DNA of 32,000 nucleotides from an uncultured bacterium (GTDB lineage Bacteria; Auribacterota; JACPWU01). The stretch lies in NCBI GenBank assembly GCA_964640155.1, contig CAZXEQ010000002.1:270001-302000 (forward strand). Direction: 5' to 3'. Positions 10,461 to 28,341 of this stretch are shown piece after piece. The notes under the pieces were generated by a model. It was given only the letters and a program-made list of their open reading frames with translations, did no database searches and was not told the origin of the DNA. Every line of letters starts with the position of its first letter. Within the stretch, counting starts at the first letter, position 1. The position numbers and the translations under genes were made by a program.

Positions 10461-10503
10461 CATAACTCGTTTGCTATAAATAAGATATGACAAGGAGAAT
10501 ACC

Positions 10504-11361: not shown

Positions 11362-11381
11362 CCACCCACCTCCATAAAAAT

Positions 11382-12512
11382 ATGAATTTATATAGACTAA
11401 AATCTTTTTTTACCTCTGAATCAAGTGATTACGCACATAAGAAAAGATCGATTTTCTTCGTAGATATATTCTTTAGCTTCATTTTTTTACTTATATTTCA
11501 ATTTAGTGGGTTATCTTGTACTATTTATAATAAAATTTGCACATATCATCCCAATTTTTATATAATAAATAGCGTGTATGTGGTTGTTTTTTTATTATTA
11601 TTTCATATTATCTTCTTGCCTCTGAGTTATTATAGTCAATTTCATCTCGAACATCGTTTTAATCTTTCCAGCCAGACATTTCAAAGTTGGTTATGGGATG
11701 AAATCAAAAGTCTTTTACTCAATCTTCTTTTTTCCGTAATTATTGTGGATGTTGTTTATGTTTTTCTTAAACATTTTCCTAATACATGGTGGCTTTGGGC
11801 TACTCTTTTTTATTTTTCATTTTCAATCTTTCTTGGGAAAATTACCCCCACTTATATTCTGCCTCTTTTTTACAAAATCAAACCTGTTGAACAGTTCGAA
11901 TTGCTTGAGTCTCTAAAATCACTGGCACAAAAAGCACATGTTCAATTATTAGGAATTTATCAAATGGATATGAGCCGCAAAACTAAAAAAGCCAATGCCA
12001 TGTTTACAGGATTGGGGAGTTCTAAACGCATCATTCTAGGAGATACTTTACTCAATCAATTTTCAACAGATGAAATAAAAGTTATCCTTGCACATGAATT
12101 AGGGCATTATCGCTATCGTCATCTTTGGCAACTCATGATCGGGGGATTGGCAATGAGTTTGGTCGGATTTTTTCTTATTCATAAAACACTTTTAGCTATT
12201 TTAAGTTTTTCTAGTATTTCAGAATTGCATCATATTGCAGGCCTACCTAGTTTTCTTTTAATTCTTTTTGTGTTTTTATTATTTTTGACGCCGTTACAGA
12301 ATGGTTATTCTAGGAAGCTTGAAAAACAGGCAGATGTGTTTGCACTCGAAGAGACTCAAAACCCGCAAAGCTTTATTTCTGCTATGAAAAAACTGGCTGA
12401 GCAAAATCTTTCAGAGATGAATCCACCCCGATGGGTTGAATTTTTTCTTTATGATCATCCAAGTATTTCAAAAAGAATTCGATTGGCTGAACAATATCTG
12501 AATAAAACATGA
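11382..12512 (+). CDS. M48-family (Ste24/HtpX-like) integral membrane zinc metallopeptidase
   Basis: The 376-aa ORF has multiple N-terminal TM helices and an HEXXH motif (AHELGHYRY) between TM segments. The C-terminal HPS..KRI motif is typical of M48 peptidases. Confidence 0.8.
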   Translation: MNLYRLKSFFTSESSDYAHKKRSIFFVDIFFSFIFLLIFQFSGLSCTIYNKICTYHPNFYIINSVYVVVFLLLFHIIFLPLSYYSQFHLEHRFNLSSQTFQSWLWDEIKSLLLNLLFSVIIVDVVYVFLKHFPNTWWLWATLFYFSFSIFLGKITPTYILPLFYKIKPVEQFELLESLKSLAQKAHVQLLGIYQMDMSRKTKKANAMFTGLGSSKRIILGDTLLNQFSTDEIKVILAHELGHYRYRHLWQLMIGGLAMSLVGFFLIHKTLLAILSFSSISELHHIAGLPSFLLILFVFLLFLTPLQNGYSRKLEKQADVFALEETQNPQSFISAMKKLAEQNLSEMNPPRWVEFFLYDHPSISKRIRLAEQYLNKT

Positions 12513-12550
12513 GAAACCCACAGACATATCTCACTAGTGAATCTTCCAAC

Positions 12551-12632
12551 AAAGTGTGAAGACCATTGGAAATCGAGTGAGCACGGACCCCGATTGATTG
12601 GGGGAAGTTGGGGTTCAAGTCTCCATACACTT
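12551..12632 (+). repeat. Diverged partial copy of the 31445-31580 palindromic element, fused to a tRNA-like T-arm and acceptor stem
   Basis: Positions 12551-12607 align by hand to the reverse complement of 31512-31571. Shared blocks are CCATTGGAA(A/C)TCGAGT and ATTGGGGGAA with similar spacing. Positions 12609-12632 contain TGGGG-TTCAAGT-CTCCA (a T-arm) and TACACTT, which pairs with AAGTGTG at 12552-12558. Confidence 0.4.
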
Positions 12633-12729
12633 ATTCATCTATAACAACCGTTTGTGAACAAGGTAAAATGAGTCACAAAACTTCTTGTCTCTTGTTTCAT
12701 GCATCTTATTTCTAACTTTGCGAGGATTT

Positions 12730-13572
12730 ATGCCTAGCTGTCTTTATATCATTGCAACACCTATTGGAAATCTTGAAGATATTTCTCTGCGCGCTCTAAG
12801 AATTTTAAAAGAAGTGTCTCTTGTCGCCTGCGAGGATACACGTCAAACACAGAAACTTCTGAATCATTATCAAATTCAAAAACCTCTCATCAGTTATCAC
12901 GATTTTAACGAACGTGGCCAAGCGCCTCAACTGATTCAAAAAATCCAAGAGGGGCAAGATGTAGCTCTGGTGAGTGATGCAGGCATGCCCGGTATTTGTG
13001 ATCCAGGATTTCAAATTATTACCCTAGCCATTGAAGCCCGAATTCCTCTGACTGTTATTCCAGGCCCTTCATCTATTTTAAATGCACTGATTTTATCAGG
13101 ACTACCCACGCATCGCTTCGCCTTTGAGGGATTTTTACCTGAAAAAAAATTAGCACGAAAAAAATTACTCGCAGAACTTGAACGAGAACAGAGAACTTTA
13201 ATTTTTTTTGAGTCGGGACTTCGACTCGATCAAACTCTGAAAGACATTTTGGAGATCATGGGAAATAGAAAAACTGCGATTGCACGTGAACTCACAAAAA
13301 AGTTTGAAACTGTTTATCGAGGAACTATCCAAGAACTCATCAATCAATCTATCACGCTTAAAGGAGAGTTTGTCATTGTTCTTTCGGGAAAAACAGATTG
13401 TGAAAACTTCGAAGATTTACCAATTCTTGATCACATTGAACAAGTAATAAAAAAAATGAATCTGTCTCGTAAAGAGGCGATCAAACTCGTAGCCGAATTA
13501 AGAGGAATCTCTAAAAGAGAGGTGTATCAGAAAAGCATCTTTAAAAAAACGAACATAAGAAGTGAATTTTGA
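12730..13572 (+). CDS. rsmI: 16S rRNA (cytidine1402-2'-O)-methyltransferase RsmI
   Basis: The N-terminus LYIIATPIGNLEDIS.RAL..L......ACEDTR and the block VSDAGMPGICDPG are diagnostic of RsmI tetrapyrrole-methylase-fold enzymes. I prefer the ATG at 12730 over the TTG at 12685 used by the ORF track. Confidence 0.88.
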   Translation: MPSCLYIIATPIGNLEDISLRALRILKEVSLVACEDTRQTQKLLNHYQIQKPLISYHDFNERGQAPQLIQKIQEGQDVALVSDAGMPGICDPGFQIITLAIEARIPLTVIPGPSSILNALILSGLPTHRFAFEGFLPEKKLARKKLLAELEREQRTLIFFESGLRLDQTLKDILEIMGNRKTAIARELTKKFETVYRGTIQELINQSITLKGEFVIVLSGKTDCENFEDLPILDHIEQVIKKMNLSRKEAIKLVAELRGISKREVYQKSIFKKTNIRSEF

Positions 13573-13614: not shown

Positions 13615-16470
13615 CTATTCCATCACCGTAACATTATCTATAGAGACTGATCCCAAATTATAGTTACTCAAGAAACCTACAGAATTAGTTGTGAAAGAAT
13701 TGGTTTGTATAGGTTCATTCGTAAAGATGGCAGTGTCATCAATAAACAGATCTGTGAGAACATAGGGAGAGTTTGGACGAATAGCAATTCTCACATGATG
13801 AGGTGCACCTCGTGCTCCCACACCTGGATACCATTGATAAGTCCCTGTAAAGCCCTCATAGATCCCATCTCTCCAACCACATCGATTAGGATTTACGTCC
13901 AAGGCGATCCCTCGATAAACAAATCCACCCCAGCCATCACTAGAGTTAGAGAAAGTAACATCGTAACTGACCGTGACGTTTCTCTCTGAAATATAAAGAT
14001 CATAAGGTGAGAAGAAACTATAACCTCCTGTTCCAACAACTGTGAAGACCAATGCCCCCGACATTAAAGTCCAGTTAATATCATTGGTGTTTCCGGAGCC
14101 AATCCATGAATTTAAATTCGTGCTAAAATCATAACTGGCCGATACAAATCCTGCAGGTATGAGCTGAGTCATGTCTTTGAGAATAATACTATCGACGTTG
14201 TAAGATCCGCTAACATTATAATGAGATAAAAATCCAATCGTATTGTTAGGAAAGCTTGTAGCTTCTATAGGCTCATCAATGAAAATAGGCTTACCATCCA
14301 CATATAAATCACTTCTATAATAAGGACTTGCTGATCTTACAAAGAGAATCACATGATGAGTAACATTTTTTGTAAGACCTGAAAACCATCGATAGGAGCC
14401 AGGAAGACTTTCGTGGTTTCCATCTCTCCATCCAATTCGATTAGGATTCAGATCAAGGTTAATGCCTCTGAATCTTACTCCACCCCAGCCATCTGTATTA
14501 TTGAATAAGACATCATACTCTAGAGCAATACTGCTGTTACTTGAGATGTTAAGGTTTGTGTTATCTAAATAAGCATATCCACCTGTTCCCACAACTTGAG
14601 ATCGAAGGGCATTACCTACGATACTCCAAGTTACATTCGATGTGGCTCCTGTTGCGCCCCATCCTGATGGAAGACTGCTTGCATCAAAGTTTTCTTGATA
14701 GAGCAGACCCGGGTTAGTTCCTGGAGCTGGAGGAGTTACGACTGTAATACTTAAGGTTTCAGTAGCAGTAAGACTTCCATCACTGGCTTGTACAGTAATG
14801 CTGTAGGCTCCCACATCTGTGCTAGAGGGAACCCAGGTAAACACGCCTGTGGTTGGATTAATGCTTGCACCTGCAGGGAGCCCTGTGGCCGTGTAGGTGA
14901 TCGTGTCTCCATTGGGATCGGAGCCTTGAGCTTGAAAGGTTAAAGTTGATCCTGCAACGACTCTTTGAGCTCCTATGCCATCTAAAGTTGGGGCTAAGTT
15001 GATCCCTGCACTTCCTGAAGTTACATTCAAATTGTCATATAAATTTGCTCCCGTGAAGTAGTTTGAGATAAATCCGATTGTCTTATCAGGATATGTTGTA
15101 ATCTGTATGGGTTCATTGTTAAAAATTAAACTCCCATCAATAGACAGTCTCGATAAATCATAAGGGCTACTTCTTTGAATATTTAAAATAATATGATGAC
15201 TTGTTCCTGCACTAACTCCGCTATACCATTGATAATTTCCAGGATGCCCTTCGTAAGATCCATCTCTCCATCCGATTCTTGAGGTGTTAATATCTAGTCC
15301 CACGCCTCGATAAAATATTCCACCCCAATTCTGAGGGGTCATATCAAGAACGATCGTGATATCTTGCCCTGAGAGATCGAGTAAGGCATGCTTGAGGTAG
15401 CCATATCCTGTTGCTGAAACTGCACTGCTGATATTGCTTCTTAACGCTCCTGCAACAAAATCCCAAGCGATGTTAATGTTTCCACTTGCAATCCAGGCGC
15501 CATAGTCACTTGCATTAAAGTTATCACTGAAGGGAAGCAATAGCGGAGCTGGGTTAGGATAAATCATAAAGTTATCCCACGTGACTGTACCTGTACTGTA
15601 ATTGGATATAAAGCCTACTGTGTTACTGGAAAATGTATTCGTTTCTATAGGCTCATTGATGAATATCGGTTTACCATCAATGTAAAGATCTGTTCTGTAT
15701 GGATAGGGATTGGAACTGCTGAGTGCAACTTTTTTAACTAACATCAAAATATGATGTTTTACCCCTTTACTCACTCCTGCATACCATTGATAGGTTCCAG
15801 GAAGACTTTCATAGTTTCCATCTCTGACTCCACATCGATTCGTATTTACGTCCAAGTGTATTCCTCTAAACCAGATTCCTCCCCAACCATCATTTGTAGA
15901 GCTAAATGTAACATCGTAGCTTACTGCCAGAGTACTCATAGTACTAATGTTAAGCGAGTCTGGAATAATAAAGCTATAGCCTCCTGTCCCTATGCCCTTT
16001 GATACAAGTGCATTATTAGTAGCAGACCAGGTTATATTACTTGTAGCACCGCTCACACTCCATCCATTGTAATTTCCATCATTAAAATTATCGCTGAATA
16101 AATAAGAACTGACAGAACTCGAGCTTAAAGGATTGGTTCCCGCTATGACTTCATATAAATCATTCATACCATCATTATCAGTATCTGTATTATTGGAGTC
16201 TGTTCCATAATTCATTTCCATGATATTAGAAAGTCCATCGCTGTCGGCATCTTGTAATGCATCGTTTGTTAGGGGATCGTGATTATTTGTCAATTCATAT
16301 CCATCGGGCATTCCATCTGAATCTGTATCGGAAACAATAGGATTAGTATTATTTTGATATTCCTGCAAGTTTGAAAGTTCGTCACCATCAGCATCTCCAC
16401 CAACAGTTTGATTTAAATTCCAAAAATAATAGGCTTCCCAATAATCCCACAAACCGTCACTATCCGTATC
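13615..16470 (-). repeat. Shared C-terminal cassette, copy in the 2006-aa protein (about aa 1056-2006): TSP3 repeats, R1, R2, Ig-like, R3, R4
   Basis: This copy is collinear, domain by domain, with 19729-22325. Approximate sub-boundaries are R1 15550-16134, R2 15020-15549, Ig 14745-15005, R3 14185-14700 and R4 13618-14150. Confidence 0.8.
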
Positions 16471-19400
16471 TACCTTTGTTCTTGACCAGGTCGTGCCCAT
16501 GAGATTTCCATTTACATCTCGTGGTTCAATACTAAGTGTTTTTGTTGTTCCATTGAAAGTGCATTTTAAATATCCCCAAGCTGTGTTATTACGTTCCATT
16601 GAAAAGGTAGCTGCGGCTCCCGAAAATGTATATAAACTTGCGCCTCCATTGCCGGTCACATAATATTTAACTCCGGATGCATTATTTTGAGCTCCTTTGA
16701 GGATTGGATAAAATTGTTCATAATGGTGATTATGGCCTTGAAAAACAGCATCTACATGATAGCTTTCGAAGATAGGGACAAGTTCTGCTCTGACATCGGG
16801 ATCGTATCCATGCGATGAAGTCGTTGAAGAATAGGCAGGTTCATGCAGATAAACAATCTTGAAAGGTTGACTCGTCGCAGCCAAGTCTTGTTCAAGCCAA
16901 GTTTTTTGCGTATTCCATAAGGATGTGCCTATGTAACTTTTATTAGCATCGAGGGCAACAAAATGAATGTCCCCATAATCAAATGAATAAAAAAGTTCTT
17001 CCGCACTGGCACCCATTCCATTTGGATAAATGTAATAAGCATCTTTGGAGGGTTGGCCATTGTATGTATCGTGATCATGATTTCCAAAAGTTGGATAATA
17101 AAAAACTGAATGAAATACATCTTTATATACGTCAAAAACATAGCTTTGAATTTGTTGGGCTGTCCCACTGGAATACGCATTATCGCCCACGGTGAGCACA
17201 AAATTTACAAGGGCTGTTTTAATTTGGTTTTTAACAGCCGTTTCATTAGAGGTTCCTGATCCCCAGTCTCCAATCACTGCAAACGAGAAATTTTGCGCAG
17301 TGTCAGGAGCAACATGCGTTTTAAATTGATAAACAGTATCCGAGGGATTTACTTTTAGAATCTGATTATTTGTTTTAATTCGATAATAATATAAAGTTCC
17401 TGCAGTTAGCCCTGTGATATTGACTTGATGCGTTGTACCGCTGGAACCTGTGGCGATGAGGCCCAAATCTGTAGTAGGACCGTATTCAACAGTACTGTCC
17501 CCAAAAATATCTGTTTGCCAAATAATAGAGACTTCGGTTGTTTTCCCCATTTGAAGAAAAGGCCCCCGTGTGAGCGTTGTAAGAGAACCTGTGAGATAAG
17601 TTACAGGATAGCTATTGTACTTCATTACTTGTTTGGTGGAGTCATCCAGAATATAAATCGAAGCTGTTGTAGAAGGATAGGCCGCAACAACTGCAATTCC
17701 CTCCTGCTCCGTTCCAGGCAAAATGTATTCTTTGAGAACTGTACCGTCAGGATACATTTCCAATAGCCGATTGGCTGAATCGAAAATTGCATAGAGTTTT
17801 TCTGTCTGGGCATCAAAATAAAGTCCCGCAATATCCGTTATGCCCGGAACAATCGTAAGGGTATCCACATAGGATATTTGGCCATTTTGTGAGAGGTTCA
17901 CATCGAAAATGTAGATCTTCCCATCAGCCTGTAATCCTGTATAGAAGAGGCCCCCCGAACTGCTGTTAGGGTAAGGGTGATAACTGTTGGGAACAAATGT
18001 TAACGCTTCTAGTCCTGAATTATCAGGCCCCGTCATCCAAGGGGTTAGTGACCAAGAACGTCCGGTGAGCGTTCCTGTCGAAATATCAAACTCACGAATG
18101 GAATCTGGATGTTCCACACCGAGATAAATATAGTTAGAATTTGCGTTTGCAATTGTAATTCCCTCAAGATCCCCGCCCGGGCTCCAAGTAATTATTTGAG
18201 AGCCATCCGCATTCATTTGACTCACTTGCCCTTCATCACTGACAATAAAAAGTTTTTGAAGACGCGTATGCCAAACTGCATCGCTCGGCTCGTACCCTGA
18301 AGGAAGATTCGAACCAATATTTATACCGCTTCCTGCCGGCCAAGGCTGAACTCCTCCCGGCGCCTCGGCATAGATATTATTACTAAAGCCTGTCGGCCAG
18401 TTGTTCGCTGAAAAATCACCATCGCCAAAAACTTTTCCATATCCCTGTTGAATAGATGCCTTGGAAGAATAACTTGCATCAATGACTGCATCTGTTCTAT
18501 AAGGCTGATAAAAAGTATTGCCCGTGGCCGTAACATCACATCCCGGGGAGAAATAAAGCAATGTTCCGCCATTATTTGAAACTCGATTGAAGAAAAAATT
18601 ATTCTGTAAAATGATGCGACTGAAGGAAGAACTTCCATAGGGACCCAAGGTAGCGGTATACCCATAAACCTGTGAATCTCCGATATTATTATTTGCAATG
18701 GTGTAAGGACCCGCCCCTTCTAAAACGAGGTTTGTCAATCCATTATAAGTGATGAAGCTGTATTCCAAAACTGCATTAACACCCCAAAGTTTAACGCCAT
18801 CTCCACAGACATTTCTCACCTGAGCTCTTTGAACAAGAACATTGTTAGCTTTTAAATCTATCCCGTCTCCTTGACTTCCCATAATCTGAACACGCTGTAT
18901 CGTAATACGATTGCCTCTTTCAACAGCAATCCCATCTGCAGCCGTGTCATTGCCAGTCTCGGTCATGCTTAAAATAACGTCTCGAATCGTGACATCTTCA
19001 ACAGCACCGTCTCCTAAATCAATCCCTGCCTGACTGTAACCCGTTGCGGTCACATTTTGAATTAAAATATTACTGGCGATGAGAGAAGGGTTTGTGGGCA
19101 TCAAGACAATACCCGAAGGCCCATCAGAAGGACGTGGTTCATTCGCTTGAAATTTAATCACCTCTCCACCGCCAACGACAATCAAATTACTTAGCGTTAT
19201 ATTGTCATTATTAATCCAGCCCACAATCGCGTAGGTCTCGAAGTTTTGTATCGTCAGATTTTGGACAGTGATGTTGTCAAAAGAACCCATATCTGTTTCT
19301 CCGTCAAAGCTGATTCCATATCCTGTACTTCCTGCAAACGCCCCGTTTAAAATAACCTGCTCATTTTGATAGCCCGACAACGTAACGCCTGAACATTTAA

Positions 19401-19635
19401 ATTGAACATTTTCTTGATAGGTTCCTACTCTTGCATAAACGGTATCTCCACTTTGAATTCTGTCGAGAGCGAACTGGATGGTTTGCCAGGGATTAGAAAT
19501 AGTACCAGAAGAATTATCGCTCCCTGAAGGACTAACATAATAGAAGGCGGCTTCAGAACAGGCGCTGAACATTATAAGAAAAAGTATGACGAGGAAGGGG
19601 GCCTGCCATTTTAAAAGGCCTCTTACAAAATTCAT
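13615..19635 (-). CDS. Giant secreted, probably lipid-anchored, multidomain protein. Domains: right-handed beta-helix, SdiA-regulated/phytase-like beta-propeller, purple acid phosphatase-type metallophosphoesterase, thrombospondin type-3 Ca repeats and the shared C-terminal jelly-roll/Ig cassette
   Basis: The 2006-aa ORF has a signal peptide with a lipobox-like MFSAC and a DUF1565/beta-helix start (YYVSPSGSDNSSGT..NPW.TIQFAL). The propeller-like region contains DLEGITI and SGLEALTF. PAP motifs GDWG, GDNAY, GNHDH, YLHEP and GHNHHYE are present, as are DxDxDG repeats (DTDSDGMPDGYE, DADSDGLSN, DTDNDGMNDLYE). Four LamG-like repeats and one Ig-like domain follow. Confidence 0.85.
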   Translation of the reverse strand: MNFVRGLLKWQAPFLVILFLIMFSACSEAAFYYVSPSGSDNSSGTISNPWQTIQFALDRIQSGDTVYARVGTYQENVQFKCSGVTLSGYQNEQVILNGAFAGSTGYGISFDGETDMGSFDNITVQNLTIQNFETYAIVGWINNDNITLSNLIVVGGGEVIKFQANEPRPSDGPSGIVLMPTNPSLIASNILIQNVTATGYSQAGIDLGDGAVEDVTIRDVILSMTETGNDTAADGIAVERGNRITIQRVQIMGSQGDGIDLKANNVLVQRAQVRNVCGDGVKLWGVNAVLEYSFITYNGLTNLVLEGAGPYTIANNNIGDSQVYGYTATLGPYGSSSFSRIILQNNFFFNRVSNNGGTLLYFSPGCDVTATGNTFYQPYRTDAVIDASYSSKASIQQGYGKVFGDGDFSANNWPTGFSNNIYAEAPGGVQPWPAGSGINIGSNLPSGYEPSDAVWHTRLQKLFIVSDEGQVSQMNADGSQIITWSPGGDLEGITIANANSNYIYLGVEHPDSIREFDISTGTLTGRSWSLTPWMTGPDNSGLEALTFVPNSYHPYPNSSSGGLFYTGLQADGKIYIFDVNLSQNGQISYVDTLTIVPGITDIAGLYFDAQTEKLYAIFDSANRLLEMYPDGTVLKEYILPGTEQEGIAVVAAYPSTTASIYILDDSTKQVMKYNSYPVTYLTGSLTTLTRGPFLQMGKTTEVSIIWQTDIFGDSTVEYGPTTDLGLIATGSSGTTHQVNITGLTAGTLYYYRIKTNNQILKVNPSDTVYQFKTHVAPDTAQNFSFAVIGDWGSGTSNETAVKNQIKTALVNFVLTVGDNAYSSGTAQQIQSYVFDVYKDVFHSVFYYPTFGNHDHDTYNGQPSKDAYYIYPNGMGASAEELFYSFDYGDIHFVALDANKSYIGTSLWNTQKTWLEQDLAATSQPFKIVYLHEPAYSSTTSSHGYDPDVRAELVPIFESYHVDAVFQGHNHHYEQFYPILKGAQNNASGVKYYVTGNGGASLYTFSGAAATFSMERNNTAWGYLKCTFNGTTKTLSIEPRDVNGNLMGTTWSRTKVDTDSDGLWDYWEAYYFWNLNQTVGGDADGDELSNLQEYQNNTNPIVSDTDSDGMPDGYELTNNHDPLTNDALQDADSDGLSNIMEMNYGTDSNNTDTDNDGMNDLYEVIAGTNPLSSSSVSSYLFSDNFNDGNYNGWSVSGATSNITWSATNNALVSKGIGTGGYSFIIPDSLNISTMSTLAVSYDVTFSSTNDGWGGIWFRGIHLDVNTNRCGVRDGNYESLPGTYQWYAGVSKGVKHHILMLVKKVALSSSNPYPYRTDLYIDGKPIFINEPIETNTFSSNTVGFISNYSTGTVTWDNFMIYPNPAPLLLPFSDNFNASDYGAWIASGNINIAWDFVAGALRSNISSAVSATGYGYLKHALLDLSGQDITIVLDMTPQNWGGIFYRGVGLDINTSRIGWRDGSYEGHPGNYQWYSGVSAGTSHHIILNIQRSSPYDLSRLSIDGSLIFNNEPIQITTYPDKTIGFISNYFTGANLYDNLNVTSGSAGINLAPTLDGIGAQRVVAGSTLTFQAQGSDPNGDTITYTATGLPAGASINPTTGVFTWVPSSTDVGAYSITVQASDGSLTATETLSITVVTPPAPGTNPGLLYQENFDASSLPSGWGATGATSNVTWSIVGNALRSQVVGTGGYAYLDNTNLNISSNSSIALEYDVLFNNTDGWGGVRFRGINLDLNPNRIGWRDGNHESLPGSYRWFSGLTKNVTHHVILFVRSASPYYRSDLYVDGKPIFIDEPIEATSFPNNTIGFLSHYNVSGSYNVDSIILKDMTQLIPAGFVSASYDFSTNLNSWIGSGNTNDINWTLMSGALVFTVVGTGGYSFFSPYDLYISERNVTVSYDVTFSNSSDGWGGFVYRGIALDVNPNRCGWRDGIYEGFTGTYQWYPGVGARGAPHHVRIAIRPNSPYVLTDLFIDDTAIFTNEPIQTNSFTTNSVGFLSNYNLGSVSIDNVTVME

Positions 19636-19728
19636 GTTCGTTCCTACCCTTCTGCCCCCAAACTTGCCTTTCCTTCTAATATCGACTCCTTATATACAAA
19701 TAATAAAAGACTATCTCTTACGATGCTT

Positions 19729-22325
19729 CTATTCTGTTACTACAACATTATCTACAGAAACAGAACCTGAATAATATCCACTTCCAAAACCTATGAAATT
19801 GCTCGGGAATGTGCCACATTCAACAACTTCATTTTCAAAAATAGCATTCCCATTAATGGTCAAGTCCATGAGAACATAAGGGGAAGCGGGTTTAAATTTG
19901 ATTTTAACATGATGACTACTTCCTTTAGTAAGTGTGCTGGGATACCATTTATACGTCCCAGAAAAACCTTCATATACGCCATCTCTTGCTCCATATCGAT
20001 TCGGACAAATGTCAATTCCAATTCCTCGATAAAGAAATTGCCCCCAACCATCCGAATTGCTGCTGAATGTGACATCATAATCGACCGTGATTGTTTTTCC
20101 TGCAATATTTAACCCGGCCGACTGTATAAAACAGTAACCTCCACTTCCTATCACTGTTGCAGTTAATGCTCCCGAAGCAATAGACCAATTCACATTGTTC
20201 ACGGCTCCGCTTGTGGTCCAATTATTGAGGTTGGAGCTAAAATCATAACTGGCCAGTACCGTACCAGGAGTAGCCGGTTGTGTCGTATCTTTCGCAAGAA
20301 TACCATCAATGCTATAAGAGTTCCCGAGATAATAATGAGACAAAAATCCAAAGTTACTAACAGAAAGGCCTGATGCTTCAATGGGTTCATTGATAAAAAC
20401 AGCTTTCCCATCCACATGAAGATCACTTAAATAGTAGGGACTTGCTTTACGAATAGAAATTATGACATGATGCAAAACATTTTTACTAATTCCTGTGAAC
20501 CATTTATAACTCCCAGAATAACCTTCATAAGACCCATCTCTCCATCCACATCGGTTAGGATTAATATCCAGGCCAACCATTTTTCCAGAACTTCCAACTC
20601 TAAAGCCTCCCCAGCCATCTGTATTGTTGAATATAACATCATATTCTATAGAAAAACTATCCAAACTCGACAAGTTCACACTTGTATTATCTAAGAAAGA
20701 ATATCCTCCTGAGCCAATTACTTTACATTGTAAAGAGCCCCCATTCACTGTCCAATCTACATTACCAGTAACTCCAGTTTCCACCCATCCACTCAATGAC
20801 GCCGTATCAAAATTTTCTTGAAAAACAGCGCCGGGGGTACTTGCCGTTTGCGTCGCAGAAATAACAATGGTTTCGCTATCTGTAAGACTTCCATCGCTAA
20901 CTTGAACAGTCACATTATATGTGCCAGCATCTGTCTCTTTTGTAGCCCAATTGAAAGCCCCTGTACTTGGATTGAGCGTGGCACCAACGGGAAGACCTGT
21001 TGCAGTGTAAACTAAATTATCTCCGTTTAAATCAATCGCTCGTACTTGAAATGAAAGGGGTTGCCCCACTTTAACACTTTTGTCACCAATACTATTCATC
21101 AAAGGAGCCAAATTGGTTCCTACACTCACAGCTGTTACACTTGTATTGTCCCACAAAACATTTCCTGTATAAAGATTGGATGTAAATCCAACTGTTTTAT
21201 CTGAATAACTTGCTATTTGTATGGGTTCATTTTGAAAAATCAGTGTATTGTCTACATACAGTTTAGATAAATCATAAGAATTTGTTTTTTCTATCATCAA
21301 TATCACATGATGTGAAGCTCCAGAACTCATTCCGCTGAAAGGCTGATAACTACTATCTTTCCAGCCAATGGCTGTTGTATTAAGCTCTAAAGAAACCCCG
21401 CGATAAATAAATGCCCCCGAACTTTGAGGAGTGATATCAAATTCAACAATCACATCTTTTCCACTCACATCCAATAATGCGTGTTTGAAACTTCCAATAC
21501 CTATTCCACTGTCTTGGGCTTGTATAGTGGACCTCAATGATCCAGAAGCAAAATCCCAGATCACTTTGCTATTTCCACCTGAAATCCACAAACCATAATC
21601 ACTTGAATTAAAGTTGTCACTGAAGGGTAAGAGTAACGATGTAGAAATAGAATAAACAGTAAAATTGTCGCATGTCACTGTTCCATTCTGAGAATAATTG
21701 GAGGCAAATCCTATTGTGTTTGGGGTCAAATTGGCCACTTCTATCGATTCATTGAGAAAAATAGGTTTGCTATCAATGTACAAATCACTTGTATAATAAG
21801 GAGATCCTTTCTTTATAAAGATCAAGACACGATGTTTAACCCCCTTACTCATACCTGCATACCATTTGTAAGTCCCCGAAAGACCTTCATAAGGGCCATC
21901 TCTCCATCCACTGCGATAGGCATTGACATCCAGATGTTTATTGATAACTACACCTCCCCAACCATCACTGTCTGAACTAAAGGTTACATCGTAACTTATT
22001 ACAAAGTTATTTACAGAAGCCAGATTTAAAGATGTTGTTATGAAACCATATCCTCCACTTCCGACAGCACGCGAAACAAGTGCATTTGTTGTCGCAGACC
22101 ATACTATATTGTTCGTCGCTCCACTGGCACTCCAACCGTTCGTGTTTCCATCATTAAAATCATCTTTAAATAAATAAGCACTGACAGAACTTGCATTTAA
22201 AGGATTGGTGCCTGCAATGCTTTCATATAAATCATTCATGCCATCTCCATCGCTATCCGTAACATTTGGGTTGGTTCCTGATTTTAATTCACTCCCATCA
22301 CTGAGACCATCTCCATCCGAATCTA
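19729..22325 (-). repeat. Shared C-terminal cassette, copy in the 2599-aa protein (about aa 1736-2599)
   Basis: The order matches: TSP3 (DSDGDGLSDGSE..DSDGDGMNDLYE), R1, R2, Ig-like, R3, R4. Both proteins end ..SVS(I/V)DNV(T/V)V(M/T)E. Approximate sub-boundaries are R1 21641-22182, R2 21125-21640, Ig 20850-21120, R3 20290-20845 and R4 19732-20280. Confidence 0.8.
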
Positions 22326-25300
22326 ATGAATATGAAGAAATCACATTCGATATAAGAGAGACATTTCCCATATTATCTGTTGTTTTAATTGCAAAATAAT
22401 ATTCAGTCGATGAAAAATTTAACCCAGATATGCTCAAGGATTCTGATCCTCCAGCGGCCTTCGGCTGAGGAGAATTGCTGATAACAGTTGCCGATGAAAA
22501 ATTGGAAGATGTAATGGGAGAAGCGGAATAACGCATATTATAAGAACTCGCTGTTCCTATTGAACCATCATCTCCGGGTGCCGTCCAAGCAAGTGTTATT
22601 GAAGATGAAGAAAGACTGGTCATTCTTAAATCAGAGATGGTTGCAGGAGCTGTTGCATCTTGAGTTACCACTAACTCGACAGGAATTTGAACACTGGGGT
22701 TGGCTCCATCATTGCTTTTGATATTCAGAGTTGCTTTATAAGAACCTGATGAAATATTCACGCCTGTATATTGCACACTGATATTTGCAGATGAAGACGC
22801 CACTACAGTGCCAGTAACAGGTTGCACAGAAAACCAGGCAAAATCTGTTTTGTTATCTAGAACCTGAATATCATCAATATAAAAACCTTCATAAGCATTG
22901 AGATATGCATCTACTGTATCAAAAGTAAAACGTAAAATAACTTTCTTACCTTTATAAGCTGTCAAATCTAAAGAGCCGGAAGAAGTCCAAGCAGATTCAG
23001 AAACATTGGCTCCATCCTTATACCAAAGCAATGCCCAAGAAGAACCTGCATTGCTTGAAATCTCCAGATAAGTTTTGTCTCCTGGAACAGAAGGGTAATA
23101 CTCCACCGTTCTCCAAAATTTGAAAGACAGCTGAGGCGTTGTCCCTGAAGTTAAATCAATTTCTGGAGAAGTCAATGTCCCTTTATTAATGGCTCCTGTC
23201 TCATAATTTCCCGTGGATTCACTTCCATAATAGAAAGCATGCGTTGCACTTGAATAGCGACGTGTTGAAGAATGCCATAAGCCCGTTGCGGTCCAACCAG
23301 AAGCATTTTCACAATCATTGTTATAAAGTGCCACCGCCTCACCTGTAGTAGCCGAAGCAACATTGGAAAGGCCAGAAACATTTCCAACATCATCCGTCAC
23401 TTTCATTGCAAAATAATAAACTGTTTTTTGAGTCAATCCCGTAATGGTCAAAGATTCTGCGCTACCAGATGACTTAGGAGCTGGAACACTGGATACCAAG
23501 GTCGCCGAGCTAAAATTGGATGAATTAATTGCACTGGTTGAATAGCGAATCTCATAAGATGTCGCCGTACCTGTATTTCCATCATCTCCCGTAGCTGTCC
23601 ATTTAAGTTTCACGGTTGAGAAAGAAAGGGTTTCTGATGTTAAAGTGCTGACCGCAGAAGGAGGCGTCGTCTCAGCATTCTGCATCGCCTTGTGTACATT
23701 GAGTCTACCACCTGAAATTGTTTTGCCAGATAAACTCGAAACTTTATCCGTTCCACTTAAAATTTGACTTTTGACTTTTGCGTAAGTCCAAGAAGGATTG
23801 GCAGCCCATATAAGCGCACAAGCCCCCGCTACATGTGGTGTTGCCATCGATGTTCCACTCAAAGACCCATATGTGTTGGAAGGAAGCGTACTGTAAATAT
23901 TTACACCTGGTGCGCCCAAATGAACAGTCGTGGCACCAAAACAAGAGAAAGAAGCCAATAAATCTTTATTGTCCGTAGCTGCTACAGAAATGACATTTGC
24001 AACTTGATAATTTGATGGATAGTGAGGGGTTTGATCATTATTCGTTCCATTGTTTCCTGCGGCCGCGACAAATAAAGCTCCTTTGGAATTGGCTACGACA
24101 ATTGAATCATAAAGAGCTTGCGAATAACCTCCTCCTCCCCAACTATTGCTCAAAATTTTAGCCCCTTTATTAGCAGCATAAAGCACCGCAGAAACTGCAT
24201 CTGAAGTAGATCCAGAACCACTTGCACTTAAAAATTTAAGAGGCATGATTTTCACTGTCCAGCTCACACCTGCAACACCCACTCCATTGTTCCCAACTGC
24301 ACCAATCGTGCCTGCACAATGGGTTCCATGTTTGTTATCATCATAGGGATCTTTATCTTCATTCACAAAATCCCAACCACGAATATCATCGACATAACCA
24401 TTTCCATCATCATCAATGCCATTGTTGGCGATTTCTCCAGAATTGGTCCACATATTGGCAGCTAAATCAGGATGATTGTAATCCACTCCCGTATCAATAA
24501 CCGCCACTACAATATTACTGCTTCCCTTAGTTATATCCCAAGCTTCAGGCGCATCAATATCCGCATCGGATGTTCCTCCGGTTTGGCCTGTATTGTGCAA
24601 CCCATAAAGTGAAGAGAAACTGGGATCGTTGGGAGTCGCATTAACACTCACAATATAATTGGGTTCTGCATATTCCACCAAACCACTGGCAACATAAGAT
24701 TTTGCAAGACGCGCTGCATCCATATTGGAAGCCGTCTCAATCAGGTGAACACCTATTTCAGCATGGGTCTTCACCACACGAGCATCTAGTCCTTGCGCCA
24801 AATCTCGAAGCGCCCCAGCACTGACACCTTCTTTAAATTTCACAAGAATTTGGCCAGGTAAATAAGGAGCCACTTTGGTGGATGTATTAATTTTAGCGGG
24901 GTCTGGAGCACCAGTAGAACTGGAGCTAACAGAAGCACCTTCAGAAATTTCAAAAGAAAGATCGGAATCCCCGGTATTCTGAATCGTGAGTGTTTGAGAT
25001 GTTGTGGCCCCAACATCTAAGGCAACCTTGGAAAGACTTGAAGGAGTTACATTCATTTTTGGGCCGACTTTTGTTTTTGCACTGATCACATTTGAAAGAC
25101 CGGAAACATTATAAAGATCATCTTTTGCTTTCATTGCAAAATAGTACGTAACGCCTGTGGAAAGGCCTGTCACTTCAAAAGTTTCTGCACTCCCTGAAGT
25201 GGTTGGGGCCAAGAGCCCTGAAACCTGTGTCGCTGAAGAAAAATTAGAAGCGGTGATGGTACTTGTAGAATATCTTAAATCATAAATTGCGGCCTTACCC

Positions 25301-27528
25301 ACAGCCTCATCGTCTCCCGGTGCAGTCCAAGTTAATGTCACCGATGAAAGCCCTGTGGTACTCGCTGCTAAATTAATAATATCTGAAGGAGGTGTAACAT
25401 CGGCAGAACCTTCTGCTAAAATTTGAATATCATCGACAAACCATCCTTCAAAAGTATTATAATAGTCATCTAACGTATCGAAATAGAACCTTATTAAAAC
25501 GGTCTCCCCATCATAGTCTGAAAGATCAATTGTTACTTTTTCCCATTTTGCATTGGTAGAATAAGATTTATACACAGTTGTCCAAGTACTTCCTCCATTT
25601 TGTGAAACTTGCACAGAAGCTTCATCATAAGGAGCATAGTTTTCTGTTGTAAGATAATGATTAAAAATCAGGGTTGAAGAAGTTGCATTCGTTAAGAAAA
25701 TTGGGGAAGAAATCAGTGAACCATTATTTTCATAACCTGTATCGTAATTGCTTGTCGTTTCACTCCCATAGTAGAAGGATTGGGTCGCACTCAGCGAGCG
25801 CTTTGAAGACAAATGCCAAAGGGTATTTCCTCCACCCCCATCTGTTCCCGATAATGACCACATGCTTTGTCCATTTTCAAAATTTTCGCTAAAAATAGCT
25901 GTGCCCTGTGTTGTCTTGCTCGATACAACATTTGAAAGAGCTGACGCATTTCCCACATTGTCTCGCACTTTCAAAGCAAAATAATAAGTTGTATTGGCAG
26001 CTAATCCTTTTACCTTAACCGTCTCTGTTTGGCCTGAAGCTTTAGGAGCCGAAAGTCCTGTCACTTGTGTTGCAGAACTCCATGTAGATTCTGTAATAGC
26101 ACTGGTCGCATATCTTAAATCATAGGAACTGGCTGTGCCTGTTGTTCCATCGTCTCCCGTCGCTGTCCAAGATAAAACTACACTAAAAAAAGAACTGCTT
26201 TGAACAGCAACAGTACTTATAGCCCCTGGAGCTGTTGAATCATTATCCATAAAATTATAAATATTAAGCCTTCCACCTGTCACTGTTTTCCCCGACAAAG
26301 CAGAAGCAGGATCTACTGTGGAAAGAATTCTATCTCTGATTTGAGTGTAAGTTGAATTAGGCAATTGAGACCACATTAAAGCGGCAGCACCTGACACATG
26401 AGGACAAGCCATGGAAGTTCCGCTTAACGAACCATACTGATTGCCAGGTTTGGTGCTGTAAATATTCACGCCAGGTGCGCCTAAATCGACAGTGGTCGCT
26501 CCATAATTAGAAAAAGAAGCCAATTGATCATTCGCATCTGTCGCAGCCACTGAAATCACATTCGCCACATCATAAGCTGCGGGATACATGGGACTCACAT
26601 CTGCATCGGCTGCACTGTTACCCGCAGCTGCAATAAAAAGAGCACCTGCATTTCGATTGACCACCATGGCATCATACATCGCTTGAGAAAATCCGCCGCC
26701 GCCCCAGCTATTACTGGAAATTTTAGCACCCATTTGAGTTGCATAGTTCAAGCAAGAAATCGCATCTGAAATGTATCCGGAACCGCTAGAACTCAAAAAT
26801 TTTAGCGCCATAATTTTGGCTCTCCAAACCACACCCGAAACTCCAATCCCATTGTTGCCCACACCTGCAATGGTTCCTGCACAATGTGTTCCATGATAAT
26901 GATCATCCATAGGATCGTTGTCATCATTGGCAAAATCCCATCCATGAATGTCATCGATGTACCCATTTCCATCATCATCCATGCCATTGCCAGCAATTTC
27001 ACCTGGATTGGTCCACATATTGGCCGCCAAATCTGGATGCGTGTAGTCTACTCCTGTGTCAATCACTGCAATGACAAAATTTGGATCACCGGTTTGAACA
27101 TTCCATGCTTCAGGAGCATCTATATCAGCGTCTGATGTGCCTCCTGTTTGCCCAGTATTATTCAATCCATAAAGACTTGAAAACGAAGGATCATTAGGCG
27201 TTTGACTGATTTGAACGATAAAGTTGGGCTCTACATAACGGACTTTGGATGATTTTTTGAGAAGAGTTAAAGCTTCTTCAACAGACATCCCTTCAGGAAG
27301 TTTATATTGATGGACATTATTAATATTAAATTTCTCTATCTGTTCGGCATTGATGGATCGACGAAGTTGACGAATCTCGGAGCTGGACGTTCCAGGTTGA
27401 TAACGAACCAAAATTTCATCTTTAGCATATGGCAAGGATTCTTCAGCTGACATTAAAGAGGATTGTCCTAAGAAAATAAAAGCAGCAACAAAAACTCCTA
27501 AAAAGATTGAATGGGCGGCCTTTCTCAT
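19729..27528 (-). CDS. Giant secreted tandem double subtilase. Twice over it carries an I9 propeptide, S8 peptidase, FN3, MAM-like, FN3 and Ig-like domain, followed by thrombospondin type-3 Ca repeats and the shared C-terminal jelly-roll/Ig cassette
   Basis: The 2599-aa ORF has a signal peptide (..FLGQSSLMSA/EES) and two complete catalytic sets. Set 1 is DTGVDYTHPD, HGTHCAGTIAG, SNSWGG and GTSMACPHVSG (Ser about aa 372). Set 2 is DTGVDYNHPD, HGTHCAGTIGA, SNSWGG and GTSMATPHVAG (Ser about aa 1227). Each set is preceded by an I9-like propeptide. AAGGAG lies 8 nt upstream of the ATG. Confidence 0.9.
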   Translation of the reverse strand: MRKAAHSIFLGVFVAAFIFLGQSSLMSAEESLPYAKDEILVRYQPGTSSSEIRQLRRSINAEQIEKFNINNVHQYKLPEGMSVEEALTLLKKSSKVRYVEPNFIVQISQTPNDPSFSSLYGLNNTGQTGGTSDADIDAPEAWNVQTGDPNFVIAVIDTGVDYTHPDLAANMWTNPGEIAGNGMDDDGNGYIDDIHGWDFANDDNDPMDDHYHGTHCAGTIAGVGNNGIGVSGVVWRAKIMALKFLSSSGSGYISDAISCLNYATQMGAKISSNSWGGGGFSQAMYDAMVVNRNAGALFIAAAGNSAADADVSPMYPAAYDVANVISVAATDANDQLASFSNYGATTVDLGAPGVNIYSTKPGNQYGSLSGTSMACPHVSGAAALMWSQLPNSTYTQIRDRILSTVDPASALSGKTVTGGRLNIYNFMDNDSTAPGAISTVAVQSSSFFSVVLSWTATGDDGTTGTASSYDLRYATSAITESTWSSATQVTGLSAPKASGQTETVKVKGLAANTTYYFALKVRDNVGNASALSNVVSSKTTQGTAIFSENFENGQSMWSLSGTDGGGGNTLWHLSSKRSLSATQSFYYGSETTSNYDTGYENNGSLISSPIFLTNATSSTLIFNHYLTTENYAPYDEASVQVSQNGGSTWTTVYKSYSTNAKWEKVTIDLSDYDGETVLIRFYFDTLDDYYNTFEGWFVDDIQILAEGSADVTPPSDIINLAASTTGLSSVTLTWTAPGDDEAVGKAAIYDLRYSTSTITASNFSSATQVSGLLAPTTSGSAETFEVTGLSTGVTYYFAMKAKDDLYNVSGLSNVISAKTKVGPKMNVTPSSLSKVALDVGATTSQTLTIQNTGDSDLSFEISEGASVSSSSTGAPDPAKINTSTKVAPYLPGQILVKFKEGVSAGALRDLAQGLDARVVKTHAEIGVHLIETASNMDAARLAKSYVASGLVEYAEPNYIVSVNATPNDPSFSSLYGLHNTGQTGGTSDADIDAPEAWDITKGSSNIVVAVIDTGVDYNHPDLAANMWTNSGEIANNGIDDDGNGYVDDIRGWDFVNEDKDPYDDNKHGTHCAGTIGAVGNNGVGVAGVSWTVKIMPLKFLSASGSGSTSDAVSAVLYAANKGAKILSNSWGGGGYSQALYDSIVVANSKGALFVAAAGNNGTNNDQTPHYPSNYQVANVISVAATDNKDLLASFSCFGATTVHLGAPGVNIYSTLPSNTYGSLSGTSMATPHVAGACALIWAANPSWTYAKVKSQILSGTDKVSSLSGKTISGGRLNVHKAMQNAETTPPSAVSTLTSETLSFSTVKLKWTATGDDGNTGTATSYEIRYSTSAINSSNFSSATLVSSVPAPKSSGSAESLTITGLTQKTVYYFAMKVTDDVGNVSGLSNVASATTGEAVALYNNDCENASGWTATGLWHSSTRRYSSATHAFYYGSESTGNYETGAINKGTLTSPEIDLTSGTTPQLSFKFWRTVEYYPSVPGDKTYLEISSNAGSSWALLWYKDGANVSESAWTSSGSLDLTAYKGKKVILRFTFDTVDAYLNAYEGFYIDDIQVLDNKTDFAWFSVQPVTGTVVASSSANISVQYTGVNISSGSYKATLNIKSNDGANPSVQIPVELVVTQDATAPATISDLRMTSLSSSSITLAWTAPGDDGSIGTASSYNMRYSASPITSSNFSSATVISNSPQPKAAGGSESLSISGLNFSSTEYYFAIKTTDNMGNVSLISNVISSYSLDSDGDGLSDGSELKSGTNPNVTDSDGDGMNDLYESIAGTNPLNASSVSAYLFKDDFNDGNTNGWSASGATNNIVWSATTNALVSRAVGSGGYGFITTSLNLASVNNFVISYDVTFSSDSDGWGGVVINKHLDVNAYRSGWRDGPYEGLSGTYKWYAGMSKGVKHRVLIFIKKGSPYYTSDLYIDSKPIFLNESIEVANLTPNTIGFASNYSQNGTVTCDNFTVYSISTSLLLPFSDNFNSSDYGLWISGGNSKVIWDFASGSLRSTIQAQDSGIGIGSFKHALLDVSGKDVIVEFDITPQSSGAFIYRGVSLELNTTAIGWKDSSYQPFSGMSSGASHHVILMIEKTNSYDLSKLYVDNTLIFQNEPIQIASYSDKTVGFTSNLYTGNVLWDNTSVTAVSVGTNLAPLMNSIGDKSVKVGQPLSFQVRAIDLNGDNLVYTATGLPVGATLNPSTGAFNWATKETDAGTYNVTVQVSDGSLTDSETIVISATQTASTPGAVFQENFDTASLSGWVETGVTGNVDWTVNGGSLQCKVIGSGGYSFLDNTSVNLSSLDSFSIEYDVIFNNTDGWGGFRVGSSGKMVGLDINPNRCGWRDGSYEGYSGSYKWFTGISKNVLHHVIISIRKASPYYLSDLHVDGKAVFINEPIEASGLSVSNFGFLSHYYLGNSYSIDGILAKDTTQPATPGTVLASYDFSSNLNNWTTSGAVNNVNWSIASGALTATVIGSGGYCFIQSAGLNIAGKTITVDYDVTFSSNSDGWGQFLYRGIGIDICPNRYGARDGVYEGFSGTYKWYPSTLTKGSSHHVKIKFKPASPYVLMDLTINGNAIFENEVVECGTFPSNFIGFGSGYYSGSVSVDNVVVTE
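22306..24870 (-). repeat. Intragenic tandem duplication, unit 2 (about aa 887-1741)
   Basis: The domain order matches unit 1. The protease cores are clearly similar by hand alignment, for example TPNDPSFSSLYGL.NTGQTGGTSDADIDAPEAW, which is identical in both. Boundaries are approximate. Confidence 0.75.
24871..27435 (-). repeat. Intragenic tandem duplication, unit 1 (about aa 32-886): I9-S8-FN3-MAM-like-FN3-Ig-like
   Basis: The unit is collinear with unit 2 at a constant offset of 855 aa. This was checked at the PY of the propeptides (aa 33-34 vs 888-889) and at the catalytic Ser (372 vs 1227). Boundaries are approximate. Confidence 0.75.
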
Positions 27529-27556: not shown

Positions 27557-27862
27557 TTAAAGCGCTTGAACCTCCTGATTATGCTCTATATATTCAATCT
27601 GCTTATCTTTCTGCAAGGCCCCCATGACCTTTTCTACATTTTCCCCCAACACACGACATAAAAAAAGATTTTGAATGCCTGGATATTCTCTTACCAATTC
27701 CAATTTTTTTTCCTTCATCAACTGATCAATGTTCGATCTTGAAACCTCTAGTTTAAATTTAATTAAAATTTCTTTCGCCGGATCTCTTTGGGCATATACA
27801 AAAACCGACAGCATTAAACTCATTCCAAAAATAAACCCTATTTCTAAAAATCTTTTTTTCAT
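27557..27862 (-). CDS. Small secreted stand-alone subtilisin-propeptide-like (peptidase inhibitor I9-like) protein
   Basis: The 101-aa ORF has a signal peptide (MKKRFLEIGFIFGMSLMLSVFVYA/QR). Its mature part aligns by eye with both propeptides of the downstream subtilase. EILIKFK..IEYIEHNQEV matches EILVRYQ..VRYVEPNFIV and QILVKFK..VEYAEPNYIV. A GAGG RBS is present and the stop lies 28 nt upstream of the subtilase ATG. Confidence 0.75.
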   Translation of the reverse strand: MKKRFLEIGFIFGMSLMLSVFVYAQRDPAKEILIKFKLEVSRSNIDQLMKEKKLELVREYPGIQNLFLCRVLGENVEKVMGALQKDKQIEYIEHNQEVQAL

Positions 27863-27875
27863 GAAACCTCATGTC

Positions 27876-27913
27876 AAAAAAAATGCCTATTCTTCAATTT
27901 CCGAAGAATAGGC
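27876..27913 (-). terminator. Strong intrinsic terminator in the operon leader, 13 nt upstream of the first start codon
   Basis: On the - strand the sequence reads GCCTATTCTTC-GGAAATT-GAAGAATAGGC. This is a perfect 11-bp stem with a 7-nt loop, followed by A and then eight T residues. Confidence 0.8.
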
Positions 27914-27948
27914 GCATACCAAAACTCTAAAGCTTTTTGCTTTATCCG

Positions 27949-28026
27949 GCAGTCTGGCGACCCCAAAAATTCGGGGTCCATAACTTTGCGCCCTATCCTT
28001 ACGGATAGTTTACCTTTTACAGATGC
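27949..28026 (-). ncRNA. Candidate riboswitch aptamer, three-way junction with c-di-GMP-I (GEMM-I)-like sequence and architecture
   Basis: On the - strand P1 is GCATCTG paired with CAGA(C)TGC. The J1/2 junction ends in GGTAAA. P2 is CTATCC-GTAA-GGATAG with a GNRA loop. J2/3 is GGCGCAAAG, followed by UAUGG. P3 is GGACCCC-loop-GGGGTC(G)C, followed by CUGCCGGA. The V. cholerae Vc2 aptamer as I recall it has GGGCAAA-CCAUUC-GAAA-GAGUGG-GACGCAAAGCC. No covariance model was run. Confidence 0.5.
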
Positions 28027-28088
28027 TTATATATTCAATTGTCAAAAAGAGGTCATTGCATCAATAAACGTTACTTTGATCAGCTATT

Positions 28089-28118
28089 ATCATAATCCAG
28101 TTTCAAGTAAGAGGTCAA
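28089..28118 (-). promoter_or_regulatory. Candidate promoter for the leader and giant-gene operon
   Basis: On the - strand TTGACC (28118-28113) is followed by an 18-nt spacer and TATGAT (28094-28089). This would give a leader of about 220 nt. The context is AT-rich, so specificity is low. Confidence 0.3.
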
Positions 28119-28341
28119 GCAAAATATTAGTTTTAATTATATTTGTAATATATTTTAATGCAATAAGTTAAAGAATAAACACTAATTTGACAAAAGGCTA
28201 TTCGTATGGTATATCCTTTTAAGAGGTTTTTTTAAAAAGAGATTGTATTCAGGAAGTAATACATTATTTCTATTACTATTTGATTACGAGTATATTATAG
28301 AATTAAATACTCTTTATGAATTGTTTTTGATTCACCATTTG

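Follow-up and report, generated by a model that had tools for sequence, protein, structure and literature searches.

A probable canonical class I c-di-GMP riboswitch of the OFF type ahead of giant secreted subtilase and phosphoesterase genes

Positions 270,001 to 302,000 of contig CAZXEQ010000002.1 (assembly GCA_964640155.1), a stretch of 32,000 nucleotides (nt) from an uncultured bacterium that is referred to as the window, carry on the minus strand a structured RNA leader ahead of genes for giant secreted hydrolases. The leader element is most probably a canonical class I cyclic di-GMP (c-di-GMP; GEMM-I) riboswitch of a subtype with a short P3 helix and a GYRA tetraloop, working as a transcriptional OFF switch. 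It adds a new example to a well-known class of RNA switches, not a new kind. The riboswitch itself thus adds little, as c-di-GMP-I is among the commonest and best-understood classes. Part of its interest may lie in what it appears to govern, as this reading would have c-di-GMP repress a secreted double subtilase of unusual size together with a phosphoesterase.

Membership of the leader in the c-di-GMP-I family was established by covariance models. All 4227 Rfam families were scanned over the full 32 kb window at curated thresholds, and the sole match was to RF03167 ('c-di-GMP-I-GGC') at 28023..27944 on the minus strand, scoring 61.3 bits (gathering score 59) with an E-value of 2.5e-12 for the whole window. 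The alignment is full-length and spans all 80 model positions (1-80). Another model of the c-di-GMP-I clan (CL00126) also scored above its own gathering score and was masked by clan competition, which likewise masks the score of the window on RF01051 itself (threshold 35 bits). In a permissive Rfam scan of 27860..28120, the c-di-GMP-II model (RF01786) gave no match at E<=10. The same model works as a control, finding a true example with 62.6 bits in one of the related loci, L119. Other matches near the leader in the permissive scan, to MIR2934, the icaR 3' untranslated region and the serC leader, reached 12-15 bits and were dismissed as noise. An earlier reading of the letters alone (hereafter the preliminary description) had proposed that the leader of a protease/phosphatase operon holds a c-di-GMP-I aptamer and had named these covariance-model comparisons as a check. 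The Rfam match, the covariation, the core residues and two orthologous leaders all bear that proposal out. The leader is more than a chance fold because the Rfam E-value is decisive alone; moreover, its fold is more stable than that of shuffled sequence (z = -4.7). A covariance model of our own, R1, in which the Rfam-derived structure was extended to the full P1 and P3 of the window, gave the window 90.8 bits, a score that includes the window's own membership in the R1 seed. The minus-strand sequence over 28030..27940 reads AUAAGCAUCUGUAAAAGGUAAACUAUCCGUAAGGAUAGGGCGCAAAGUUAUGGACCCCGAAUUUUUGGGGUCGCCAGACUGCCGGAUAAA. An open reading frame (ORF) of 61 amino acids (aa) on the plus strand at 27986..28171, which overlaps the aptamer, was treated as spurious.

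The sequence elements quoted in the preliminary description are all present on the minus strand where it had placed them, and its description holds for P2 (CUAUCC-GUAA-GGAUAG, 28008..27993), for J1/2, which is rich in A, and for the GGCGCAAAG junction. The three-helix junction that it drew is likewise supported by comparative evidence. Two alignments were used: A1, comprising 20 aptamers, and A2, comprising 105 related aptamers from retrieved loci that were aligned to R1. The latter is model-fitted and leans toward the structure. In A2, 90.9% of the cells are paired, compared with 70.4% for shuffled columns and 33-45% with the partners slid by 1-3 columns. Even with the model-fitted alignment in mind, the slid controls fall far short. 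Changes on both sides are found in 19 of the 25 pairs, with a covariation score of 0.594 versus 0.198. P2 is paired in 99.2% of the cells and both parts of P3 in 96%. Hence the covariation among homologous leaders, the other check that had been named, turned out strongly in favour of P2 and P3, and P1 is compensated in the orthologous leader L001. Pairing of P1 across A2 is lower, at 64.7%, because the register of this helix differs among sequences.

P1 itself had to be redrawn. The preliminary description had paired GCAUCUG with CAGA(C)UGC; however, the lower P3 takes CCAGACU (27957..27951) as its 3' strand, and the partner AGUU-A-UGG pairs with this strand in 96% of the cells with compensation. 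The P1 that replaces it consists of AUCUG (28024..28020) and CGGAU (27948..27944). Its counterpart is CUCUG/CGGAG in L001, an A-U to C-G change, and UCUG/CAGA in the second orthologous leader, L203. The G that had been counted as an extra base within the 3' CCGA is accordingly a P1 base and not a deviation.

The residues of the ligand pocket are those of a canonical aptamer. At model positions 10/37/75 the window reads G/A/C, and these positions we take, from the sequence of the Vibrio cholerae aptamer Vc2 together with PMC11218506, to be Vc2 G20/A47/C92. By this mapping, G20 is 28014, A47 is 27987 and C92 is 27949, and all three are invariant in A1. In Vc2, G20, A47 and C92 have been named as ligand-interacting (PMC11218506), C92 pairs with one of the ligand's guanines, and C44 and G83 form an inter-helix tertiary pair (PMC11705072). 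Both bases of the latter are present in the window as C44 (27990) and a bulged G (27958, the equivalent of G83). Both are invariant in the 20 sequences, and as neither base varies, covariation cannot probe their pairing. The pair G21-C46 is also invariant, and of the 105 aptamers, 95 have CG and 10 have UG as the pair 22-45. U22 of the window retains a U-G wobble with G45.

The frequency of such residues was further surveyed with the metagenome pattern GGYAAAC-N5-GTAA-N5-GGRCGCRAAG, in which A or G was permitted at position 47; 118 distinct aptamers are among the matches listed, and the counts that follow refer to these. Position 47 is A in 118/118, though G was permitted. Besides the extra G, the preliminary description had listed U22 and G43 as deviations from Vc2. 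Both residues are indeed present in the window, but they are not unusual, being found in 10/118 and 38/118 aptamers, respectively. The two tend to go together, as 7 of the 10 U22 aptamers have G43 versus 31 of the 108 with C22, and the window has both. This co-occurrence could stem from structural coupling beside the binding pocket or from shared ancestry.

Two orthologous leaders were found. No species-representative genome came closer than L001, labelled 'MAG: Chlamydiae bacterium', whose subtilase is 71% identical over the N-terminus. Its order is that of the window: a promoter-like site, an aptamer (2197..2284, 67.4 bits), a terminator, a small prodomain-like ORF and a giant subtilase. A profile search with the small ORF gave one further relative, 77% identical, on contig L203 (GCA_041906865.1), which is syntenic with the window through TerC, pseudouridine synthase, methyltransferase, OsmC and the leader. 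The aptamer core of L203 (2820..2900) is identical to that of the window. An insertion of about 60 nt at its P3 tip gives a long, possibly branched hairpin, and the P3 tip is thus free to vary between close relatives. The same leader layout is shared by L001/L204/L205 and L203, and A47 is found in all three orthologs, namely the window, L001 and L203. Other searches were less productive. Loci L002-L020 from the subtilase-based genome scan had no riboswitch. A search for more orthologs with the subtilase N-terminus returned generic subtilases only, at 50-63% identity and from many phyla, with both the L001 ortholog and the window protein itself absent from the matches listed. The metagenome pattern scan gave no close ortholog of the window leader among the matches listed.

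Besides the aptamer, the leader has the parts of an expression platform. A promoter-like site lies upstream, from which transcription may start at about 28082. Sites of this kind stand at the equivalent place in L203, with an identical -35 hexamer and TATAAT, and in L001 (TTGACT-16-TATATT). A single intrinsic terminator starts about 30 nt past the aptamer and has equivalents in L001 and L203. When the transcript is folded only as far as the terminator loop, the terminator 5' arm and loop of the window pair with the aptamer core, and those of L001 do likewise. In the window, this antiterminator helix (28005..27987 with 27916..27900) comprises 17 pairs and two single-base bulges, and the antiterminator fold of the shortened transcript reaches -48.1 kcal/mol versus -33.0 kcal/mol for the aptamer-enforced fold. 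The duplex alone is worth -24.3 kcal/mol in the window, where 0/2000 shuffled arms were as good, and -23.0 kcal/mol in L001, where 4/2000 were. The string GCGYCUAUUCUU..CGGAA is kept in the window, L203 and L001, including loop bases that are not constrained by the terminator alone. Additionally, aptamer position 43 (G/G/A in the three orthologs) shifts in concert with the arm (C/C/U) and with the terminator 3' arm (G/G/A). The architecture of a terminator/antiterminator OFF switch is thereby present, that is, a terminator together with an alternative pairing of its 5' arm with the aptamer core. The aptamer strand of the antiterminator covers C44, G45, C46 and A47, which are engaged in the ligand-bound fold; thus, an OFF switch is the simplest reading. 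Two weaker antiterminators, one via the P1 3' strand (GGAUA/UAUUC, 5 base pairs (bp)) and the other via the L001 linker (AUAGGC/GUCUAU, 6 bp), were passed over for the helix of 17-19 bp predicted in both orthologs.

From these parts, the following course of events may be proposed. Transcription would begin near 28082, and the aptamer (28024..27944) would fold first. With c-di-GMP bound, G20, A47 and C92 together with the pairs G21-C46 and U22-G45 would be locked, and P2 would dock on P3. The stretch 27916..27900 would then be left without an aptamer partner and would pair with 27895..27885 to form the 13-bp terminator, so that polymerase would halt at the U8 tract. In the ligand-free state, the exposed GGCGCA junction would serve as a toehold from which the incoming UGCGCCUAUUCUUCGGA invades P2, giving the 17-bp antiterminator and read-through into the operon. 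The net logic that we infer is that high c-di-GMP would turn the secreted hydrolases off. An antiterminator that invades the ligand-binding core (the P2 3' arm and C44-A47) rather than P1 would make a simple and testable toehold mechanism. Such a layout may be common. A terminator within 200 nt was found for 41 of the 95 related aptamers surveyed. Many such terminators carry GUUUGCC, the complement of the GGCAAAC core (G20-C26), as in L140, L171, L144, L139, L153, L154, L147, L149, L137 and L089. This suggests a recurrent design, in which a terminator arm would compete for the ligand-binding core and not for P1, and core-competing platforms would then be common in the class.

There are several points that weigh against a canonical c-di-GMP OFF switch. 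The top-scoring Rfam model for the window is that of the GGC variant, RF03167. The covariation of the antiterminator is thin, consisting of one concerted change in three orthologs at an often-variable position. The minimum-energy fold of the full-length leader holds the terminator even without ligand (-54.5 kcal/mol). Lastly, the host lineage is labelled Chlamydiota; c-di-GMP systems are sparse or absent in chlamydial genomes (PMC4989314), and Chlamydia is without GGDEF and EAL proteins (PMC3663186).

The full-length fold raises the question of whether the same aptamer and ligand have another output, be it an ON switch or control acting mainly on translation or RNA stability. With the terminator forming in the absence of ligand, the thermodynamic default is off, and some class I riboswitches are ON, such as Cdi-1-1 in Clostridioides difficile (PMC6200980). 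However, the terminator is a self-contained stem situated outside the aptamer, and no route was found by which a bound aptamer could block it. The terminator 5' arm has only one strong alternative partner, and this sits in the ligand-binding core, as expected of an OFF switch. Moreover, the ribosome-binding site lies past the U tract and is unsequestered in every predicted fold. Another output is thus considered unlikely. As the terminator fold is the most stable one at full length without ligand, the preferred OFF switch would depend on kinetic, co-transcriptional control.

The family label calls for a closer look at ligand specificity. The preliminary description had kept a variant ligand, such as cyclic GMP-AMP (cGAMP) or another dinucleotide, or a new class in view, and a specificity variant would be either the Rfam 'GGC' class, a sensor of cyclic AMP-GMP (c-AMP-GMP) or a sensor of some other dinucleotide. 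RF03167 as the top family, with a score above its gathering score, speaks for such a variant, as do the deviations from Vc2 already mentioned. However, model position 37 is a conserved G in the consensus of RF03167 (...GGGACGCGAAgCc...), whereas the window carries A (GGGCGCAAAG) and leaves the match line blank at that column. CGCAAAG is the reading here in the window, in L001 and in L203, versus CGCGAAg in the consensus. In Weinberg et al. 2017, 'GGC' is reportedly the name of the triplet G/G/C at 20/47/92, and on that naming the window has the canonical triplet G/A/C. The variants with c-AMP-GMP as ligand have A at position 20, where the window has G (28014). These c-AMP-GMP (GEMM-Ib) riboswitches share the scaffold, and a single change of a pocket nucleotide marks them and retunes the ligand (PMC9295807, PMC9481103). 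U22 and G43 are, for their part, frequent in the same subtype. With G20, A47 and C92 forming a canonical pocket, the earlier suggestion of a variant ligand or a new class is not upheld, and a specificity variant is very unlikely.

The Rfam label is explained by a comparison among aptamers that all have A47. Among 20 such loci, RF03167 was the best model under Rfam clan competition for 17 (L116, L119, L178, L188, L091, L096, L200, L108, L124, L129, L131, L148, L089, L194, L158, L172 and L114; 59.9-74.4 bits) and RF01051 for 3. The label hence follows the architecture, namely the shortness of P3, the GYRA loop and the CUGCC tail, and not the pocket. As these 17 aptamers pass the RF03167 threshold, the threshold fails to separate variant from canonical aptamers. 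The variant label therefore appears to be over-applied to canonical short-P3 aptamers. Automated annotations of the GGC variant may be inflated accordingly, and model position 37 deserves checking.

The identity of the host bears on whether the switch is in use. The plus-strand genes at 448..13572 of the window encode a GspF/PilC-type secretion protein, yidC, mnmE, mnmG, parA, parB, an M48 peptidase and rsmI, and the presence of yidC, mnmE, mnmG, parA, parB and rsmI indicates a chromosomal location. MnmG of the window is 76-79% identical to proteins labelled 'Chlamydiae/Chlamydiota bacterium' at NCBI, which come from groundwater metagenome-assembled genomes (MAGs), and the next matches, at about 62%, are from Omnitrophota, Verrucomicrobia and Nitrospirota. 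The exact product of the small ORF was found only in assemblies of two sequencing runs. The placement in Chlamydiota is a lead rather than a finding. One could suppose that the riboswitch was horizontally acquired with the operon and lies idle or decaying in a host with little or no c-di-GMP, the operon being constitutively on. The scatter of the subtilase relatives over many phyla, the Chlamydiota label and the difference in upstream neighbourhood between the window/L203 and L204 would fit such a history. On the other side, the aptamer core, the terminator and the antiterminator are intact and conserved in three lineages whose small-ORF products are 37-77% identical, and compensatory changes are found in P1 and P3. 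Intact conserved parts and compensatory changes together indicate purifying selection on the RNA, and an idle riboswitch is therefore very unlikely. A working OFF switch in this host has a further implication, possible but doubtful at present: if the placement is right and diguanylate cyclases are encoded, the leader would be RNA-level evidence that c-di-GMP signalling works in a chlamydial lineage from the environment, where it would control the export of a giant protease and phosphatase. If true, a free-living lifestyle or one of attachment and dispersal would suit this picture, in contrast to the obligate intracellular life of the known members.

The positions of the leader parts and the downstream genes are collected in Table 1. 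The context of protease and phosphatase that had been described earlier was confirmed by Pfam, the downstream genes encoding a double subtilase and a calcineurin-like phosphoesterase. The first product, of 101 aa, has orthologs in L001 and L203 with identities of 37% and 77%, respectively. No terminator-like site was found in the 93-nt gap between the genes of the 2599-aa and 2006-aa proteins, and the 2006-aa gene is probably co-transcribed with the upstream genes. The 2599-aa protein has a duplicated module of prodomain, subtilase S8, fn3 and MAM-like domains. Both giant secreted proteins, which are adjacent (13615..27528, minus strand), bear bacterial TSP3 repeats and a He_PIG immunoglobulin-like domain near the C-terminal half. 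This shared TSP3/He_PIG region suggests a common anchoring or targeting region.

Table 1. Parts of the riboswitch leader and the genes that follow it, in window coordinates
Feature	Position	Strand	Basis
Promoter-like site TTGACC, 18-nt spacer, TATGAT	28089..28118	-	Consensus scan, 10/12 matches
c-di-GMP-I aptamer, P1 to P1	27944..28024	-	Rfam match (28023..27944), R1 score, covariation in 105 relatives
P1 5' strand AUCUG; partner CGGAU, 27948..27944	28020..28024	-	Five contiguous pairs
G20 (28014), G21, U22; G21-C46 (27988), U22-G45 (27989)	28012..28014	-	Rfam alignment; Vc2 numbering after PMC11218506
P2 hairpin CUAUCC, GUAA tetraloop, GGAUAG	27993..28008	-	99.2% of cells paired; 5/6 pairs doubly compensated, 105 sequences
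Predicted antiterminator 5' strand inside the aptamer, UCCG-U-AAGGAUAGG-G-CGCA	27987..28005	-	Minimum-energy fold of transcript ending before terminator 3' arm
Core junction G42 G43 C44 G45 C46 A47 A48 A49 (C44 27990, A47 27987)	27985..27992	-	C44, G45, C46 and A47-A49 invariant in 20-sequence alignment
P3 hairpin AGUU-A-UGGACCCC, loop, GGGGU-CG-CCAGACU; bulged G 27958	27951..27985	-	96% of cells paired; double changes in 9/12 pairs
Junction G-C; C 27949 equivalent to Vc2 C92	27949..27950	-	Rfam alignment; C invariant in 20 sequences
Linker hairpin AAAGC-AAAAA-GCUUU	27929..27943	-	In all predicted folds; kept in L203, not in L001
Predicted antiterminator 3' strand UGCG-CCUAUUCUU-CGGA	27900..27916	-	3 nt upstream of terminator stem, 5' arm and first loop part
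Intrinsic terminator: 13-bp stem (27913..27885), A, U8 (27883..27876)	27876..27913	-	Terminator scan; full-length minimum-energy fold
GAGG ribosome-binding site (27870..27867) and 101-aa signal-peptide, prodomain-like protein (27862..27557)	27557..27870	-	Pfam Fervidolysin_NPro-like, E 2.8e-5
2599-aa protein: two prodomain and subtilase S8 modules, fn3, MAM-like, TSP3, He_PIG	19729..27528	-	Pfam Peptidase_S8, E 2.5e-121, two matched stretches
2006-aa protein: purple-acid-phosphatase N, calcineurin-like phosphoesterase, TSP3, He_PIG	13615..19635	-	Pfam

The leader can be compared with several known systems. Vc2, the structural reference of GEMM-I (RF01051), is alike in the three-helix fold, G20/A47/C92, G21-C46, the C44 and G83 bases and the AAA junction. 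It differs in its GAAA tetraloop, where the window has GUAA. Furthermore, P3 of the window is short and without the GAAA-receptor motif, the Rfam structure line having a 2-nt bulge there; the pair 22-45 is U-G, positions 43 and 91 are G, and the platform is a terminator. With RF03167, the window shares its architecture of a short P3 and its CUGCC tail at the 3' end; it differs by A in place of the conserved G at position 37. Among characterized switches, Cdi-1-12 of C. difficile is a class I aptamer before the secreted protease gene zmpI, and c-di-GMP lowers its transcript, making it an OFF switch (PMC6200980), as proposed for the window. The likeness is drawn apart from the details of the expression platforms, and Cdi-1-12 belongs to a different phylum and precedes the gene of a small zinc metalloprotease, whereas the window has a giant subtilase/phosphoesterase pair. 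Bc1 of Bacillus thuringiensis, like the window, has a class I aptamer with intrinsic termination after it, and it inhibits the expression of downstream genes (PMC11218506). Its platform spans 220 nt with two terminators, whereas the window has a single one, some 30 nt past the aptamer.

Some of the related loci have arrangements of their own. In L119, a class I aptamer (1169..1080, minus strand, 60.6 bits) that has a terminator to itself stands 162 nt ahead of a class II c-di-GMP aptamer (917..832, minus strand, 62.6 bits), after which come a ribosome-binding site and a secreted protein of 232 aa whose GPQGPEGPQ repeats are collagen-like. A tandem of two classes for the same ligand, class I and class II, was not found in the searched passages of the tandem-riboswitch review PMC9481103. 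Additionally, several metagenomic contigs carry two class I aptamers, namely L117 (1421..1501 and 7156..7237), L143 (4338..4446 and 5394..5494), L097 (62..180 and 626..743), L102 and L087. Some of these pairs are close enough for a tandem and others stand before separate genes.

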